Positions 18,542-34,479 of a DNA stretch of 36,250 nt are shown piece by piece. The notes under the pieces were generated by a model. It saw only the letters and a program-made list of their open reading frames with translations. It ran no database searches and had not been told where the DNA came from. The translations under genes were made by a program, and so were the position numbers. How positions within the stretch are numbered: the stretch's first letter is position 1; the number at the start of each line of letters is the position of its first letter. The stretch lies in the IMG/VR virus record IMGVR_UViG_2870490042_000002. One strand, 5' to 3'. Source of the stretch: a virus (lineage: Duplodnaviria > Heunggongvirae > Uroviricota > Caudoviricetes).

Positions 18542-19591
18542 ATGTCTAACGATGATAAAACATTGAATTTATTCCCCATAGATTATCCATTTGAGACTTT
18601 ATGTTCTAGGATGAAGTCCAATCCCATCAAACTAAAACTGAATCCAGACTTTCAAAGAAAGTACAAATGGGATCAGGACGGATGGCTGCGATCTTCAAAA
18701 TTCATTGAATCTTGTTTAATGCGTATTCCTCTTCCATCTTGTTACTTTGCAGAAGATGATAGCGGCAATCATATTGTAATTGATGGTGTTCAGCGATTAA
18801 CCACAATACAGAAATTTTTTGATGACGAGTTCGCTTTGGAGGGAATGACTACATTTAAAGAGCTTGAAGGGAAAAAGTTTTCTGAATTAGGATCTCTACG
18901 TTCAGAGTTAGAGTCGACAACAATAAGATGCATTGTTCTAAGAAAAGAAAATCCCAAAAAATTAATAAGAGAGATATTTTCTAGACTCAATCAGGGGGCA
19001 GTTAAACTTTCTGATCAAGAAATAAGACATGCGTTATATCCGGGAGGGTTTGATGAATTATTAGAAGAGTTAGGTAATATTGATGCCATTAAAAATTTTG
19101 GTTTGGCGGAAACAACTACAGTAAAAAGAGATAGTCGTGAGCCAGACGAACAAGTTTTGCGTTTTTTTGCATTTTATGAAGATAACTTTTTTGATTACTT
19201 TGATAGCTCCTTGAAAGAATTCTTGGATGATCATATGGAAAAATTTTCAGACTTAAAAGATGATGAACTGAATATTATGAGGGAGAGATTCAAAACATCA
19301 TTATCTAAGTGTGAAAAAATATTTGGTGAAGATGTATTTACAAACCCTACAGTTAGGAGAAAACGTAAAGGGTTAGTTCATTATGACATTTTAATGCCTA
19401 CAATTGGCAAGTTAAATGATGATATTGTAAATGAAAAGTCCGAACAAATACGGAATGCTTGGTTTACTCTTTGTTCAAGTGCTGAGTTCAAAAAAACTTT
19501 ATCAGGTGGGCTACAGAATAAGAGTTCGGTGATGAAGCGTAGGGCTAGTTGGGTGGCACTTCTTAAGGAAGTTATTGATGGAAAATACTGA
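18542..19591 (+). CDS. DUF262 (ParB/Srx-like nuclease/NTPase fold) protein, 349 aa
   Basis: Hallmark N-terminal block FQRKYKWDQDGWLRSSKFIESCLMRIPLPSCYF...IVIDGVQRLTTIQKFF (DGQQR-type motif). No DUF1524/HNH tail recognised. AT-rich. Confidence 0.8.
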   Translation: MSNDDKTLNLFPIDYPFETLCSRMKSNPIKLKLNPDFQRKYKWDQDGWLRSSKFIESCLMRIPLPSCYFAEDDSGNHIVIDGVQRLTTIQKFFDDEFALEGMTTFKELEGKKFSELGSLRSELESTTIRCIVLRKENPKKLIREIFSRLNQGAVKLSDQEIRHALYPGGFDELLEELGNIDAIKNFGLAETTTVKRDSREPDEQVLRFFAFYEDNFFDYFDSSLKEFLDDHMEKFSDLKDDELNIMRERFKTSLSKCEKIFGEDVFTNPTVRRKRKGLVHYDILMPTIGKLNDDIVNEKSEQIRNAWFTLCSSAEFKKTLSGGLQNKSSVMKRRASWVALLKEVIDGKY

Positions 19592-20156
19592 ATACTATGA
19601 TGGATATCGTTCATTATTTTTATCCTTAAAAGAAATTATTAAGGAGACGGAGCAACAGGCTATCCTTGAGGAAAATGAATTCTTCAATAAGAACATTAAT
19701 TTTTTTGTTAAATCGTATCTTATTACACTCTGCACTTATTTAGAGTCGTATTTGACTGAGGTTGCAACATGGCACTGCGATACCATCAATCGCAGGCTCA
19801 AAGCAGCCTGCTTGCCACACAATTTTTTGCTTTGGCGAGTCAAAAAAGATGTTAAAGATAAGGAGTTGAAATATATAGATGCTGATTTAAAGGTTGAGAA
19901 AAGTGAGGTGTCGGATAGCCTGTCTGGTAATCCTTACAAGACGATTAAGGCATTTTCTTATTTGGGTGTTAATCTTTTGAATTCGGCGGAATTTAATGCG
20001 AATAAGGATGTTGTGAATGCAGTGGTTGTAAAGAGAAATAACATTATTCATCATAACGACAATGCAAATGATATTAGTCTCACTGACGTAAGTGGTTATG
20101 TAGATCTGTTTGTATCCTATATGGCTGCGATAGATAATATGGTTTGTGGAAAATAA
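19578..20156 (+). CDS. HEPN-like protein with Rx4H motif (candidate RNase), 192 aa
   Basis: ATG at 19578 has RBS AAGGAAG and overlaps the upstream gene by 14 nt. Candidate catalytic motif in VVVKRNNIIHHNDN (R-x4-H). Family assignment from memory of HEPN-like families, unverified. Confidence 0.65.
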   Translation: MENTEYYDGYRSLFLSLKEIIKETEQQAILEENEFFNKNINFFVKSYLITLCTYLESYLTEVATWHCDTINRRLKAACLPHNFLLWRVKKDVKDKELKYIDADLKVEKSEVSDSLSGNPYKTIKAFSYLGVNLLNSAEFNANKDVVNAVVVKRNNIIHHNDNANDISLTDVSGYVDLFVSYMAAIDNMVCGK

Positions 20157-22856: not shown

Positions 22857-24542
22857 ATGACAGTGAAATATAAAACCGTTATCACCCGAGCCGGTGCGGA
22901 AAAACTGGCGGCGGCGACGCTCCCGAACGGGAAGAAAGTCAATTTTGCTGTGATGGCCGTCGGGGACGGCGGCGGAAAACTGCCCGAACCGGACGCCAGC
23001 CAGACAAAACTCGTCAATGAGGTCTGGCGTCATGTCCTGAACAAAATCAGCCAGGACAAAAAACATAAAAATTATGTCGTGGCGGAGCTGGTGATCCCCC
23101 CGGAGACCGGCGGTTTCTGGCTGCGTGAAATGGGGCTTTACGATGACACCGGCACGCTGATTGCGGTCGGCAATATGGCCGAAAGCTACAAACCCGAGCT
23201 GGCGGAAGGATCAGGTCGTGCGCAGACGCTGCGTATGGTGATCATGGTGAGTGATATCGACACGGTCGAGTTGTCCATCGATACCACGCTGGTGATGGCG
23301 ACGCAGGATTATGTCGACGACAAACTCGCAGAGCATGAGCAGTCCCGCCGCCATCCTGACGCCACGCTGAAAGAAAAAGGGTTCACGCAGTTAAGCAGTG
23401 CGACCGACAGCACGTCTGAGGCGCTCGCCGCGACACCGAAAGCGGTTAAGGCGGCGTATGACCTTGCGAAAGGTAAATACTCGGCTCAGGATGCGACCAC
23501 GGCGCAGAAAGGGATTGTTCAGCTCAGTAGCGCCATCGACAGCGTGTCTGAGACGCTCGCCGCAACGCCAAAAGCGGTGAAAGCGGCGAATGATAATGCT
23601 GATGGCCGCGTTCCTTCCTCGCGCAAAATTAACGGACACTCCCTGAATGCTGACACCAGTGTTACCTCGCAGGATATTTTCGACGACCAGGCTATTGGGC
23701 TGGTAACGGAGGATTTAGACACCCTTAAAACGCCGGGTATTTACTTTCAGCCAGCGAATTCTAATACCTCAGCCGCCAGACATTACCCTGAAAATAACGC
23801 CGGGACGCTGGTCATTTATAAAAATGCCGGAGTGACTCAGGTATACCGGGTTTATAACAGCTCCCGGAGCTACTCGCGCAGTCAGTATTCAACAGGCGCA
23901 TGGACACCGTGGACGCCTGATGATGTTTTTCCGGTAGGCGCTCCCGTTGCGTGGCCGTCTGACAGTGTTCCTGCTGGCTATGCCGTCATGCAGGGACAAA
24001 CTTTTGATAAAGCCGCGTATCCGCTGCTTGCTGTGGTGTACCCATCGGGTGTTATTCCTGATATGCGGGGCTGGACAATCAAAGGTAAACCCGCAAGTGG
24101 GCGCGCTATTTTGTCTCAGGAGCAGGACGGCATTAAATCGCACGCCCACGGTGCCAGCGCATCGAGCACCGATTTAGGGACGAAAACCACCAGTGCTTTT
24201 GACCACGGAACGAAAACCACCACGACCTTTGACTACGGGACAAAAACCACTAATGCAACCGGCAACCATGCGCACACTTTTACCGTACACCGGGGAGATC
24301 AGGCCGGGGGACAGGCCGCCGACGGTAACGAAATAGCGACGGGAACGAAAACAACATCAACTGCAGGTAATCACGCGCATACCGTGGCGATTGGTGCCCA
24401 CAATCATAATGTCGGGATTGGCGCACACTCGCACTCCGTTGCTATTGGCGCACACGGTCACACCATTACGATCGCCGCGTCGGGTAATGCAGAAAACACC
24501 ATCAAAAACATCGCATTTAACTATATCGTGAGACTCGCATAA
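22857..24542 (+). CDS. H: Tail fiber protein H (561 aa) with repetitive His-rich C-terminal domain
   Basis: Conserved N-terminus [28 protein letters not shown]...AVGDGGG. C-terminus carries tandem repeats and HxH motifs. Confidence 0.85.
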
Positions 24543-25120
24543 TGACGTTTAAAATGACCGGAGAAAGCCGGACTATCACTGTGTATAACTTTCGTGCAGA
24601 CACCTGTGAATTTATTGGAAAAGGTGACGCCCTGATACCGGCATTTACCGGATTGCCCGCCTGCTGCACCAGTGAAAAGCCCCCGGAAACCCGAGACGGA
24701 TTTATTCCGGTTTATGACACTGAAAATGGTTGCTGGGCTATCACTGAAGACCACCGGGGTGAGGTTGTCTATGACACCGAAACAGGTCATGAGAGGGAGA
24801 TAACCGAGCCGGGTCAGTATCCGGCAGGAACAACACCGGTTGTGCCGGAAAACCCGTGGCAGAAATGGGATGGTAAAACATGGGTTGATGATGCTGATGC
24901 TGCACGTAATGCATTGACAGAGGCTGCGAAAAACAACAAAAACAGGCTTCTTAAACAGGCCAATACTGCGGTTGCGACATTACAGGACTCCGTTGATCTG
25001 GAGATGGCAACCGACGATGAAAAAACGCACCTCATTGCATGGAAAAAATACCGTGTTTTACTGAGCCGCATCCAGCCGGAGGATGCTCCGGATATTGAAT
25101 GGCCGCCGCTGCCAGTCTGA
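24542..25120 (+). CDS. G: Tail fiber assembly chaperone G
   Basis: 192 aa directly after H with a start/stop overlap. C-terminus THLIAWKKYRVLLSRIQPEDAPDIEWPPLPV is typical of Tfa proteins. Confidence 0.8.
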   Translation: MTFKMTGESRTITVYNFRADTCEFIGKGDALIPAFTGLPACCTSEKPPETRDGFIPVYDTENGCWAITEDHRGEVVYDTETGHEREITEPGQYPAGTTPVVPENPWQKWDGKTWVDDADAARNALTEAAKNNKNRLLKQANTAVATLQDSVDLEMATDDEKTHLIAWKKYRVLLSRIQPEDAPDIEWPPLPV

Positions 25121-25130
25121 TCCGACATCT

Positions 25131-25156
25131 GGCGGGCAGTTGCCCGCCTTTTCCTT
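25131..25156 (+). terminator. Rho-independent terminator after G
   Basis: GGCGGG-cagttg-CCCGCC hairpin followed by TTTTCCTTT. Confidence 0.5.
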
Positions 25157-25255
25157 TCCCGTCGTTGTGTCAGACCTTAGCCAACCCTGACAAATAGCCC
25201 GCACCCGCCACACAACAGAAAATATCACTCACCCCTTAACCACGGAGTTAAACGG

Positions 25256-31942: not shown

Positions 31943-32464
31943 ATGTCAAAGCCAAAATACCCTTTTGAAAAGCGCCTTGAAGTCGTGAATCACTACTTCA
32001 CAACTGATGATGGTTACAGGATCATCTCGGCACGTTTTGGTGTCCCCCGAACCCAGGTCAGGACATGGGTTGCCCTCTATGAAAAACATGGAGAAAAAGG
32101 TTTAATTCCCAAACCTAAAGGCGTTAGTGCTGATCCAGAGTTGCGTATTAAGGTCGTGAAAGCTGTGATCGAGCAGCACATGTCCCTTAATCAGGCTGCT
32201 GCTCACTTTATGCTTGCTGGTAGTGGTTCTGTAGCCAGGTGGCTGAAGGTCTATGAAGAGCGCGGAGAAGCTGGTTTACGCGCGCTCAAGATTGGCACCA
32301 AAAGAAACATTGCAATATCAGTTGATCCAGAAAAAGCGGCATCAGCATTGGAGCTGTCAAAAGACCGACGCATTGAGGATCTTGAAAGGCAAGTTCGATT
32401 TCTTGAAACGCGGCTTATGTATCTAAAAAAGCTGAAAGCCTTAGCTCATCCCACGAAAAAGTGA
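31943..32464 (+). CDS. insJ: IS150 OrfA (InsJ, 173 aa, HTH)
   Basis: MSKPKYPFEKRLEVVNHYFTTDDGYRIISARFGVPRTQVRTWV. IS3-family OrfA with C-terminal leucine zipper. Confidence 0.85.
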   Translation: MSKPKYPFEKRLEVVNHYFTTDDGYRIISARFGVPRTQVRTWVALYEKHGEKGLIPKPKGVSADPELRIKVVKAVIEQHMSLNQAAAHFMLAGSGSVARWLKVYEERGEAGLRALKIGTKRNIAISVDPEKAASALELSKDRRIEDLERQVRFLETRLMYLKKLKALAHPTKK

Positions 32465-33312
32465 AAGTACTCAACGAGCTAAGGCAGTTTTATCCTCTTG
32501 ATGAGCTTCTCAGGGCTGCGGAGATACCGCGCAGTACGTTTTATTATCATCTAAAGGCTCTCAGCAAGCCTGACAAGTATGCGGACGTTAAAAAGCGTAT
32601 TAGTGAGATTTATCACGAGAATAGAGGCCGATACGGATACCGTAGGGTAACGCTGTCTCTTCATCGAGAAGGGAAACAGATTAACCATAAAGCTGTTCAG
32701 CGCCTGATGGGAACCCTCTCACTTAAAGCAGCGATTAAGGTCAAGCGATACCGCTCTTACAGAGGAGAGGTAGGGCAAACCGCCCCTAATGTTCTCCAAA
32801 GAGATTTCAAGGCTACGCGGCCAAACGAGAAGTGGGTTACCGATGTTACTGAATTTGCAGTCAATGGGCGCAAGCTGTATTTGTCTCCAGTAATAGATCT
32901 CTTCAACAACGAAGTTATTTCTTACAGCCTTTCGGAAAGACCAGTGATGAACATGGTTGAGAATATGCTCGATCAGGCATTCAAAAAGCTTAATCCTCAC
33001 GAGCATCCTGTTCTGCACTCTGACCAGGGATGGCAGTATCGTATGAGAAGATATCAAAATATCCTTAAAGAACATGGTATTAAACAAAGCATGTCCAGAA
33101 AAGGCAATTGTCTGGATAATGCTGTGGTGGAGTGTTTCTTTGGAACCTTAAAGTCGGAGTGTTTTTATCTTGATGAGTTCAGTAATATAAGCGAACTGAA
33201 GGATGCTGTTACGGAATATATTGAATACTACAACAGCAGAAGAATTAGCCTGAAATTAAAAGGTCTGACTCCAATTGAATATCGGAATCAGACCTATATG
33301 CCTCGTGTTTAA
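32461..33312 (+). CDS. insK: IS150 OrfB (InsK, DDE transposase catalytic domain)
   Basis: 283-aa ORF in the -1 frame relative to OrfA, GTG start at 32461. IS3-family DDE transposase core. Confidence 0.85.
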
Positions 33313-33627: not shown

Positions 33628-34479
33628 TTGAACAATATCCCCATATCTACTCAATGGACTTTAGACGCTACGGGTGAAGTTGGACGCTCATCAGTAAATT
33701 CTGTTTATATGATTATATGTCCTGCGACCGGCTCGAAAGGATCTGGTTTTTTAATAGATAATGGGTTAATAGTAACGAACGAGCATGTTATCACTGGATG
33801 CTCTACAAATCAGATTTTCGCAATTTCAGCTTATGGACAGAAGATTCCAATTTCTCAAAAATGGATAGATTCTGATCGCGATTTAGCTGTGCTGAGACCT
33901 GCCATTACCCAGACTGGTGGGCTAAGTATTGTTAAGGATAATGATCTTAAAGTTGGTGAATCAGTAACAACTTGGGGATACCCATTAGGATACAACGGTC
34001 CTGCACCGTTACTATCCGTTGGTTATCTAGCAGGATTTAACTCATACCAAACCGCCAAGGGACAAAAAAAACATCTAGTGGTAAATGGGGCATTTAACTC
34101 AGGAAATTCTGGTGGAGCTCTTTTAAAAGCTTCAGATAATAAAGTAATAGGTATTGTAGTGAGTAAGCATGCTCCTATCAGTCAATACCATCAATCAGCT
34201 ATTGAAGCTTTGTCTGAAAATATGAGTGGCGTCACCTATACCGCTACTAATGACGCTGGAGAAACTAAAAGTTTTGTAGAATCTCAAATTGTAGCAGAAT
34301 TATTGATTCATATGAGAAGTCTAACTCAAGTTATGATTGGAGAAGCAATTGCAGCAGAGGAATTACTTTCGATGCTTAGCGAAATTGACTTGAGTCCACC
34401 ACAATCTATGTCAAGAAATGCCTTATGTCATTGCGGGAGTGGAAAACGCTTCAAAGAATGTCATGGAAAGATATCCTAG
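33628..34479 (+). CDS. Trypsin-like (S1) serine protease with C-terminal SEC-C zinc-binding motif; cargo gene
   Basis: TTG start with RBS AAGGAG 5 nt upstream. Triad candidates His in VTNEHV, Asp in DLAVL, Ser in GNSGGAL. C-terminal CHCGSGKRFKECHG. No signal peptide. AT-rich. Confidence 0.75.
   Translation: MNNIPISTQWTLDATGEVGRSSVNSVYMIICPATGSKGSGFLIDNGLIVTNEHVITGCSTNQIFAISAYGQKIPISQKWIDSDRDLAVLRPAITQTGGLSIVKDNDLKVGESVTTWGYPLGYNGPAPLLSVGYLAGFNSYQTAKGQKKHLVVNGAFNSGNSGGALLKASDNKVIGIVVSKHAPISQYHQSAIEALSENMSGVTYTATNDAGETKSFVESQIVAELLIHMRSLTQVMIGEAIAAEELLSMLSEIDLSPPQSMSRNALCHCGSGKRFKECHGKIS

Follow-up and report, generated by a model that had tools for sequence, protein, structure and literature searches.

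The distal two-thirds of gpH, the tail fibre protein of a P2-like Escherichia coli prophage, very probably represent a modular fibre that ends in a tip of the T4 gp37 type and has been diversified by ordinary homologous recombination. The window, i.e., the whole stretch of 36,250 nucleotides that was analysed, consists of E. coli chromosome in which a P2-like prophage sits beside yegQ/trhP. Annotated copies of an identical prophage are present in strain IH5 and in about 35 other complete E. coli genomes. Pfam searches with the neighbouring genes and the RefSeq annotation of the identical prophage give the P2-type gene order V-W-J-I-H-G-FI-FII, in which H is preceded by the baseplate gene J and the tail protein gene I, and is followed by G and then by the sheath and tube genes. 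By Pfam, H contains the tail-collar fibre domain PF12571 (Phage_tail_fib, aa 1–151), two copies of PF03406, and a Collar domain (PF07484, aa 361–408); NCBIfam gave no matches for H, G, or the knob segment. The PF12571 domain, the P2 gene order, and the position between I and G show that the label "tail fiber H", given in a preliminary description of this DNA, was right.

We propose that gpH would act as the trimeric tail fibre of the prophage and that it would be put together from modules that can be interchanged: a domain at the N-terminus for baseplate attachment, two Pf2 repeats as a spacer in the shaft, a knob-like domain, and the gp37-type tip. The N-terminal domain shares 76 to 93% nucleotide identity with other P2-like H genes, and attachment to the baseplate is inferred for it by analogy with its family. 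Trimer formation, metal binding and the identity of the metal, dependence on the chaperone, and the receptor are likewise features that we infer for gpH. The positions of all features are listed in Table 1.

Table 1. Positions of the modules of gene H, of gene G, and of the exchangeable block in the window
Feature	Position	Strand	Residues of H	Evidence and details
Gene H, P2-type tail fibre	22857..24542	+	561 aa	ORF; RefSeq WP_029392299.1, "phage tail protein"
N-terminal fibre domain	22857..23309	+	1–151	PF12571, E=1.1e-55, full profile length
Fibre repeat unit 1, Phage_fiber_2 ("Pf2")	23361..23492	+	169–212	44 aa
Fibre repeat unit 2	23493..23624	+	213–256	PF03406; repeat comparison
Knob-like domain	23709..23912	+	~285–352	Profile versus PDB 6CL6 / 6CT8, E=3e-5
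Collar domain, N part	23925..24137	+	357–427	Equivalent to gp37 D10 residues 812–881, 77% identical
Ascending stem	24138..24275	+	428–473	HxH #1, 24141–24149; GTK units, 24177–24266; HxH #2, 24267–24275
Tip loop	24276..24353	+	474–499	Hypervariable; equivalent to gp37 932–959, 18% identical
Descending stem	24354..24488	+	500–544	HxH #3 to #6: 24372–24380, 24399–24407, 24426–24434, 24453–24461
C-terminal strand returning to collar	24489..24539	+	545–561	88% identical to gp37 1010–1026
Exchangeable block	24247..25193	+		Third GTK unit, tip, descending stem, G, part of the G-FI spacer; comparison with L008 and L009
Gene G, gp38 / lambda Tfa-type tail-fibre assembly chaperone	24542..25120	+		WP_000143189.1; PF02413 (Caudo_TAP), E=4.6e-36; phrog_105

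The fibre ends in a gp37-type collar, needle, and tip loop

Residues 357–561 of H align with the crystallised tip of T4 gp37 (2XGF, chain residues 28–242) with an E-value of 1.3e-73 and 60% identity over 205 residues. The HxH motifs of H had initially been likened to the metal-coordinating arrays of fibres such as gp37; with this alignment, in which six of the seven iron-binding HxH motifs are matched, the parallel is raised from analogy to homology. For the regional comparison, the limits of gp37 were taken as 811–881 and 1010–1026 for the D10 collar, 882–931 and 960–1009 for the stem, and 932–959 for the tip (PMC6957217). Identity is highest in the two parts of the collar, falls to 54% and 58% in the stem strands, and is lowest in the tip (Table 1).

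In gp37, seven iron ions lie along the axis of the needle, held by seven HxH motifs, and the receptor-binding residues defined by T4 mutagenesis fall within 932–959 (PMC6957217). The octahedral Fe(II) site built by HxH motifs from three chains is found in R-pyocin fibres, gp37, and P2 gpV, and zinc was present at the HxH site in crystals of T4 gp12 (PMC6116203). The HxH motifs of gp37 in the aligned region are at positions 883, 915, 929, 966, 980, 989, and 998, and 12 of the 14 iron-ligand histidines are kept in H. The motif H915/H917 is absent, lost in a 4-residue gap in the ascending strand that is matched by a 5-residue deletion on the descending strand; thus, one of the seven HxH layers of T4 is missing in H. 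The same six-motif layout is shared with the P2-like phages STYP1 and Chuche. Each needle HxH, contributed by three chains, would provide six histidines holding one buried metal ion (iron in T4), and since six of the seven motifs align, six such metal staples are predicted in the H needle versus seven in T4. The metal in H could be other than iron, to judge from the known HxH sites.

The six motifs of H start at residues 429, 471, 506, 515, 524, and 533. Five had been listed in the preliminary description, and all of these are present, but the first, SHAHG (aa 429–431), had been missed. Shuffles of the protein give 0.67 HxH motifs on average and reach at least six only once per 100,000 shuffles (P ~1e-5). 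The last four are periodic at 9 aa (27 nt), with the pattern (A/I)G(N/A)HxHx(V/I)(A/G/T). All 12 HxH histidines are invariant among 12 diverse alleles, and the invariance of these histidines and of the collar across diverse alleles is a signature of purifying selection. The three tandem GTKTT..FD repeats of about 30 bp proposed earlier are real as 30-nt units in the ascending stem, the second and third being 80% and 70% identical to the first (TRF score 93), although only the first two units end in FD and the third runs into an HxH motif. A fourth GTKTT is found at 24342, after the tip loop.

By analogy with gp37 and PhiNP, the tip loop is presumed to be the part of the fibre that contacts a cell-surface receptor (LPS core or porin) and determines specificity. 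Homologues of the tip were detected in 451 phage records, which include T4-like gp37 proteins, lambdoid side tail fibres, the Citrobacter phage PhiNP, and several Peduoviruses. The best match among the sequenced phages in the collection is 74% identical over the whole tip, and the loop sequence of H is absent from every one of them. An RGD tripeptide in the loop (24291–24299, aa 479–481) is not shared with the other alleles examined and probably arose by chance. AlphaFold2 monomer models were unusable, both for the C-terminal 205 residues (pLDDT 48, pTM 0.17) and for the knob segment (pLDDT 37). In the profile comparison with the PDB, the knob segment is related to Knob2 of R-type pyocin fibres.

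The 44-residue repeats belong to the fibre shaft

A direct repeat of 86 nt, 77% identical, is present at 23376–23461 and 23508–23593, with a spacing of 132 nt. The true repeat unit is 44 aa (132 nt), and the two units of H are identical at 27 of 44 residues and 81 of 132 nucleotides. The direct repeats of about 75 bp noted in the preliminary description are therefore real and close to where they had been placed, with a measured length of 86 nt inside the 132-nt units; its heading assigned the repeats to the receptor-binding region, whereas the 44-aa repeats actually lie in the mid-fibre shaft. The PF03406 profile matches H in two stretches with an E-value of 2e-37 and 126.9 bits, against a gathering cut-off of 22, and the repeats also match residues 98–155 in the constant part of Mu gpS (5YVQ). 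This Pf2 repeat was first noted in lambda Stf, and its structure and function have been described as little known (PMC3368898).

Among the best 120 database homologues of H, the Pf2 copy number ranges from one to five, with a spacing of 44 aa in 340 of 345 cases, and the number of HxH motifs from five to eight; the two numbers do not co-vary in this set. Comparison of H alleles among relatives had been suggested as a check on the repeats, and the repeats indeed vary, as this range of copy number shows. The H genes of STYP1, Chuche, ENT4, and one E. coli prophage can be aligned with H in either of two registers, 132 nt apart, and are 132 nt longer, which indicates three units in each. In multi-copy alleles, the internal units are sometimes identical, indicating recent duplication, while the start of the first unit and the end of the last do not vary. 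The 44-aa repeats alter fibre length and mark a module border, without carrying specificity themselves.

Natural alleles differ by repeat number and by a tip and chaperone block

Full-length homologues of H are encoded by the P2-like phages STYP1 (67.5%), Chuche, P24A7b, SEN1, and SEN5. Other P2-like fibres share only the proximal part: 186 K, PSP3, BIS20, and PHB48 align with H only over aa 1–251 or 1–256, i.e., to the end of unit 2, and genes of the P2/L-413C type only until about nt 606–615, the end of unit 1. Among close relatives, the alleles P0002 to P0007 are about 91% identical to H, and nearly all differences fall between HxH #2 and #3, where they carry three unrelated loops that differ in length. 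Across the 12 diverse alleles, there is no conserved column between these two motifs and there are 12 different loops, 13 loops being obtained after clustering. The allele P0005 is 98% identical to H but shorter by exactly one 44-aa unit, and the join falls within the core of the repeat.

Alignment of the window with the prophage loci L008 and L009 gave sharp edges to the variable segment. Both loci are 95 to 100% identical to the window from gene J to nt ~24246, fall to 9 to 90% identity in 60-nt windows inside the block 24247–25193, and return to 98 to 100% identity from ~25194 into the sheath gene. Immediately before the block, a 59-nt stretch over GTK units 1 and 2 (24188–24246) is identical in all four sequences. 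Divergence continues through the rest of H, G, and the spacer; thus, the exchanged unit is the third GTK unit, loop, descending stem, and chaperone rather than the loop alone. In the descending stem, the protein is conserved and the DNA different, indicating different ancestry. From these alignments, the specificity-bearing change is presumed to be a joint swap of the chaperone gene and of the loop that separates HxH #2 from #3.

A third locus, L010, contains an in-register deletion of 132 nt (23448–23579), with the L008 lineage on both sides of it, and switches to the lineage of the window between 23687 and 23759, where the knob begins and the sequence is conserved. For this locus, the fibre repeat was ruled out as the site of the lineage crossover, as the site-by-site comparison places the switch only at 23687–23759. 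The unit deletion and the lineage crossover in L010 are separate events; crossovers are therefore not confined to the repeats and need not favour them. The alignments suggest that the repeats are recombinogenic for copy number and that crossovers also take place in any sufficiently conserved stretch. The earlier expectation that this region is prone to recombination is borne out by natural variation in three forms, namely the copy number, the exact 132-nt deletion, and the sharp-edged block of tip and chaperone. Under the proposed mechanism, unequal crossover would change the number of Pf2 units, hence the length of the fibre, exchange of the block of tip loop, descending stem, and G would change specificity, and the diversity would arise by ordinary homologous recombination within conserved stretches. 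Chi-site-driven exchange was dropped, as there are no Chi sites in the window.

Of 5,426 complete E. coli genomes, 35 contain the tip and G block of the window, and the backbone that bears it is the same in each. Judging by strain names only, many of the 35 to 38 genomes that carry this allele are probably related by clonal descent. Locus L008, an E. coli prophage with allele P0002, has an extra insert of ~0.7 kb between G and the sheath gene that is absent from the window; it contains an ORF of 194 aa (5324–5908 of L008, minus strand) with hexapeptide-repeat-like sequence IGDNVDIGANTCIVG, which by its sequence may be an acetyltransferase moron. In the prophage of E. coli OkiPb01701 (L005, 3001–4707), the N-terminus of H is 93% identical over nt 1–737 and the gene is broken into pseudogene fragments; its C-terminus is a different one, that of a pyocin-knob protein, and represents another distal module on the same backbone.

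Gene G encodes a gp38/Tfa-type chaperone that follows the tip

In T4, gp38 is the chaperone that folds gp37. By blastp, G is 25% identical to gp38 (E=6e-15), and a chaperone of this gp38/Tfa type would be needed for folding of the tip. The identity of G to the window follows that of the tip, being 100% in L010, 85% in L009, and 75% in L008.

Comparison with known fibre systems

The closest structural counterpart is T4 gp37 (D10–D11, 2XGF) with gp38. Like gp37, H has a collar, needle, and tip-loop topology in which the chain returns to the collar, its C-terminal 11 residues are identical to those of gp37, and a gp38-related chaperone gene lies directly downstream. Unlike gp37, H is without the H915/H917 layer and has the compensating 5-residue deletion on the descending strand, its tip loop is unrelated and 2 residues shorter, and its tip is borne by a P2-type fibre body of 356 residues instead of a gp37 shaft of ~800 residues, with no gp34–36 partners. 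The GxHxH "His boxes" of T-even gp37 were reportedly proposed as recombination borders by Tetart, Krisch and colleagues (1996, 1998).

Magaziner and Salmond (2022; PMC9659904) have described a "T4- and lambda-based RBP family", in which more than 200 members are accompanied by a neighbouring gp38-like chaperone. The family takes in Ur-lambda Stf/Tfa, the P2-like Salmonella phage SEN5, and the temperate myophage PhiNP, which uses LPS Glc-II as its receptor, and sequence differences among its members concentrate in the gp37 specificity region (PMC9659904). H resembles this family in having the same tip domain and adjacent chaperone in temperate enteric phages, and PhiNP (ORF6/ORF5) is 73% identical to H over the tip; what sets H apart is the tip loop not seen in the phage collection. 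Judged by its sequence, H is a previously uncharacterised allele of this published tip and chaperone family.

P2 gpH/gpG and 186 K have the same N-terminal domain and Pf2 repeats as H and occupy the same place in the late operon; over aa 1–256, 186 K is 79% identical to H. Past the repeats, 186 K is unrelated to H, as is L-413C gpH to judge by the extent of its megablast match, and neither has a gp37-type collar or needle match. In 186 gene K, a "Mu-like inversion crossover site" is annotated (L006, 3800–3825) 57 nt after the homology with H ends, so that the end of the Pf2 repeats coincides with the border between constant and variable parts in invertible fibres. Horizontal exchange of P2 fibre parts has been noted in the P2 engineering literature (PMC9594776). 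The fibres of R-type pyocins (6CL5 / 6CL6) have a knob-like domain, as H does, and an HxH iron site in their trimeric shaft (PMC6116203); they differ from H in having a single Fe site and a lectin-fold foot at the end rather than a gp37-type needle. Exchange of fibre parts in P2 is also said to have been described by Haggard-Ljungquist et al. in 1992 and by Sandmeier in 1994.

Alternative explanations for the repeats and the variation

The preliminary description implied that the repeats are the site of host-range switching, in which case the 44-aa units, rather than the tip loop, would be the main switch. The range of copy number would fit such a role, as would the fact that homology stops at the end of unit 1 or 2 in the more distantly related P2-like H alleles. 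However, the repeat sequence is highly conserved across fibres with different tips, different tips occur on alleles that are 95 to 100% identical through the repeats, and the same tip is possible with a different copy number (P0005 versus H of the window). The repeats also lie ~100 to 300 residues upstream of the region homologous to the receptor-binding tip of gp37, and we regard a switch located in them as improbable. It is quite unlikely that H is a decaying, non-functional prophage gene in which the HxH motifs and repeats are relics that no longer serve metal binding or adsorption. The fragmented and frameshifted H of the related OkiPb01701 prophage and the IS3-family insertion elsewhere in the prophage of the window point in that direction, yet the frames of H and G are intact, as are the late genes from terminase to D read in the identical prophage, diverse alleles show no change in the 12 HxH histidines or the collar, and the same architecture is found in the isolated plaque-forming phages STYP1, Chuche, and Peduovirus P24A7b.

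Programmed variation, either by an invertase that switches C-terminal cassettes in the manner of Mu, P1, or 186, or by a diversity-generating retroelement that rewrites the tip loop, would account for a loop that is hypervariable among otherwise near-identical alleles, and the crossover site annotated in 186 K just beyond the part shared with H (aa 1–256) is a precedent for the former. We consider it extremely unlikely here, because the gix/186-type crossover consensus is unmatched in the whole window even at 3 mismatches, and the tail-side genes that were read in the identical prophage include none annotated as an invertase. A second copy of the 3′ end of H or of G was not found on either strand, at the DNA or protein level, which leaves neither a template repeat nor a spare cassette. 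A Mu/P1-type invertible fibre segment was therefore rejected for want of a crossover site or second cassette in the window, and a retroelement target was rejected when self-BLAST of the 3′ end of H against the whole window gave no second copy. The loops are moreover unrelated and of unequal length, and the flanking stem and G also differ in DNA; differences in loop, stem, and G together indicate block replacement and not adenine-targeted mutagenesis. Diversification by homologous recombination, with the tip loop as the presumed specificity determinant, is the reading that we retain.

Implications for fibre engineering

For basic biology, these results carry little weight, as tail-fibre mosaicism is textbook knowledge and the tip and chaperone module of temperate and P2-like phages has already been published. 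Their practical value is modest: the natural alleles supply exact junctions, in frame, at which P2-based particles or tailocins could be engineered. Candidate junctions are the end of Pf2 unit 2 (nt 23624), the 59-nt stretch at 24188–24246, and the G-FI spacer near 25193, and the natural alleles suggest that a tip loop is best moved with its descending stem and its chaperone. The alleles also amount to a natural experiment in the numbers of HxH metal layers and of shaft units that a fibre tolerates. A further, rather improbable idea is that this rare allele, in which a six-layer needle is combined with a loop absent from every sequenced phage in the collection, binds a receptor new to the gp37/Stf family and that the Pf2 units (one to five) and HxH layers (five to eight) are independently tuned "length dials"; if true, the reach of the fibre would be adapted to the thickness of the O-antigen or capsule of the host.

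Other features of the prophage

A two-gene insert lies between the tail-completion genes and baseplate gene V (18542–20156, plus strand). Its first gene encodes a GmrSD_N/DUF262 protein that is matched in PADLOC by NsnA (E=7e-80) and PD-T4-2_A (E=1e-42), and it overlaps a gene for a RiboL-PSP HEPN protein. The insert is probably anti-phage defence cargo in a variable slot of P2. An IS3-family insertion at ~31943–33312 (plus strand), between ogr and a peptidase gene, contains ORFs of 173 and 283 aa with an HTH and an rve integrase core. The window aligns with strain IH5 in two pieces at 94% coverage, and the insertion probably accounts for the ~1.4 kb that is unmatched. At the end of the prophage next to yegQ, the peptidase gene (33628–34479, plus strand) encodes a trypsin-like peptidase with a C-terminal SEC-C motif. 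It has weak PADLOC matches to the protease domains of RT-Protease and Lamassu/Hachiman-type proteins, and from its sequence a role as cargo or in defence is possible.
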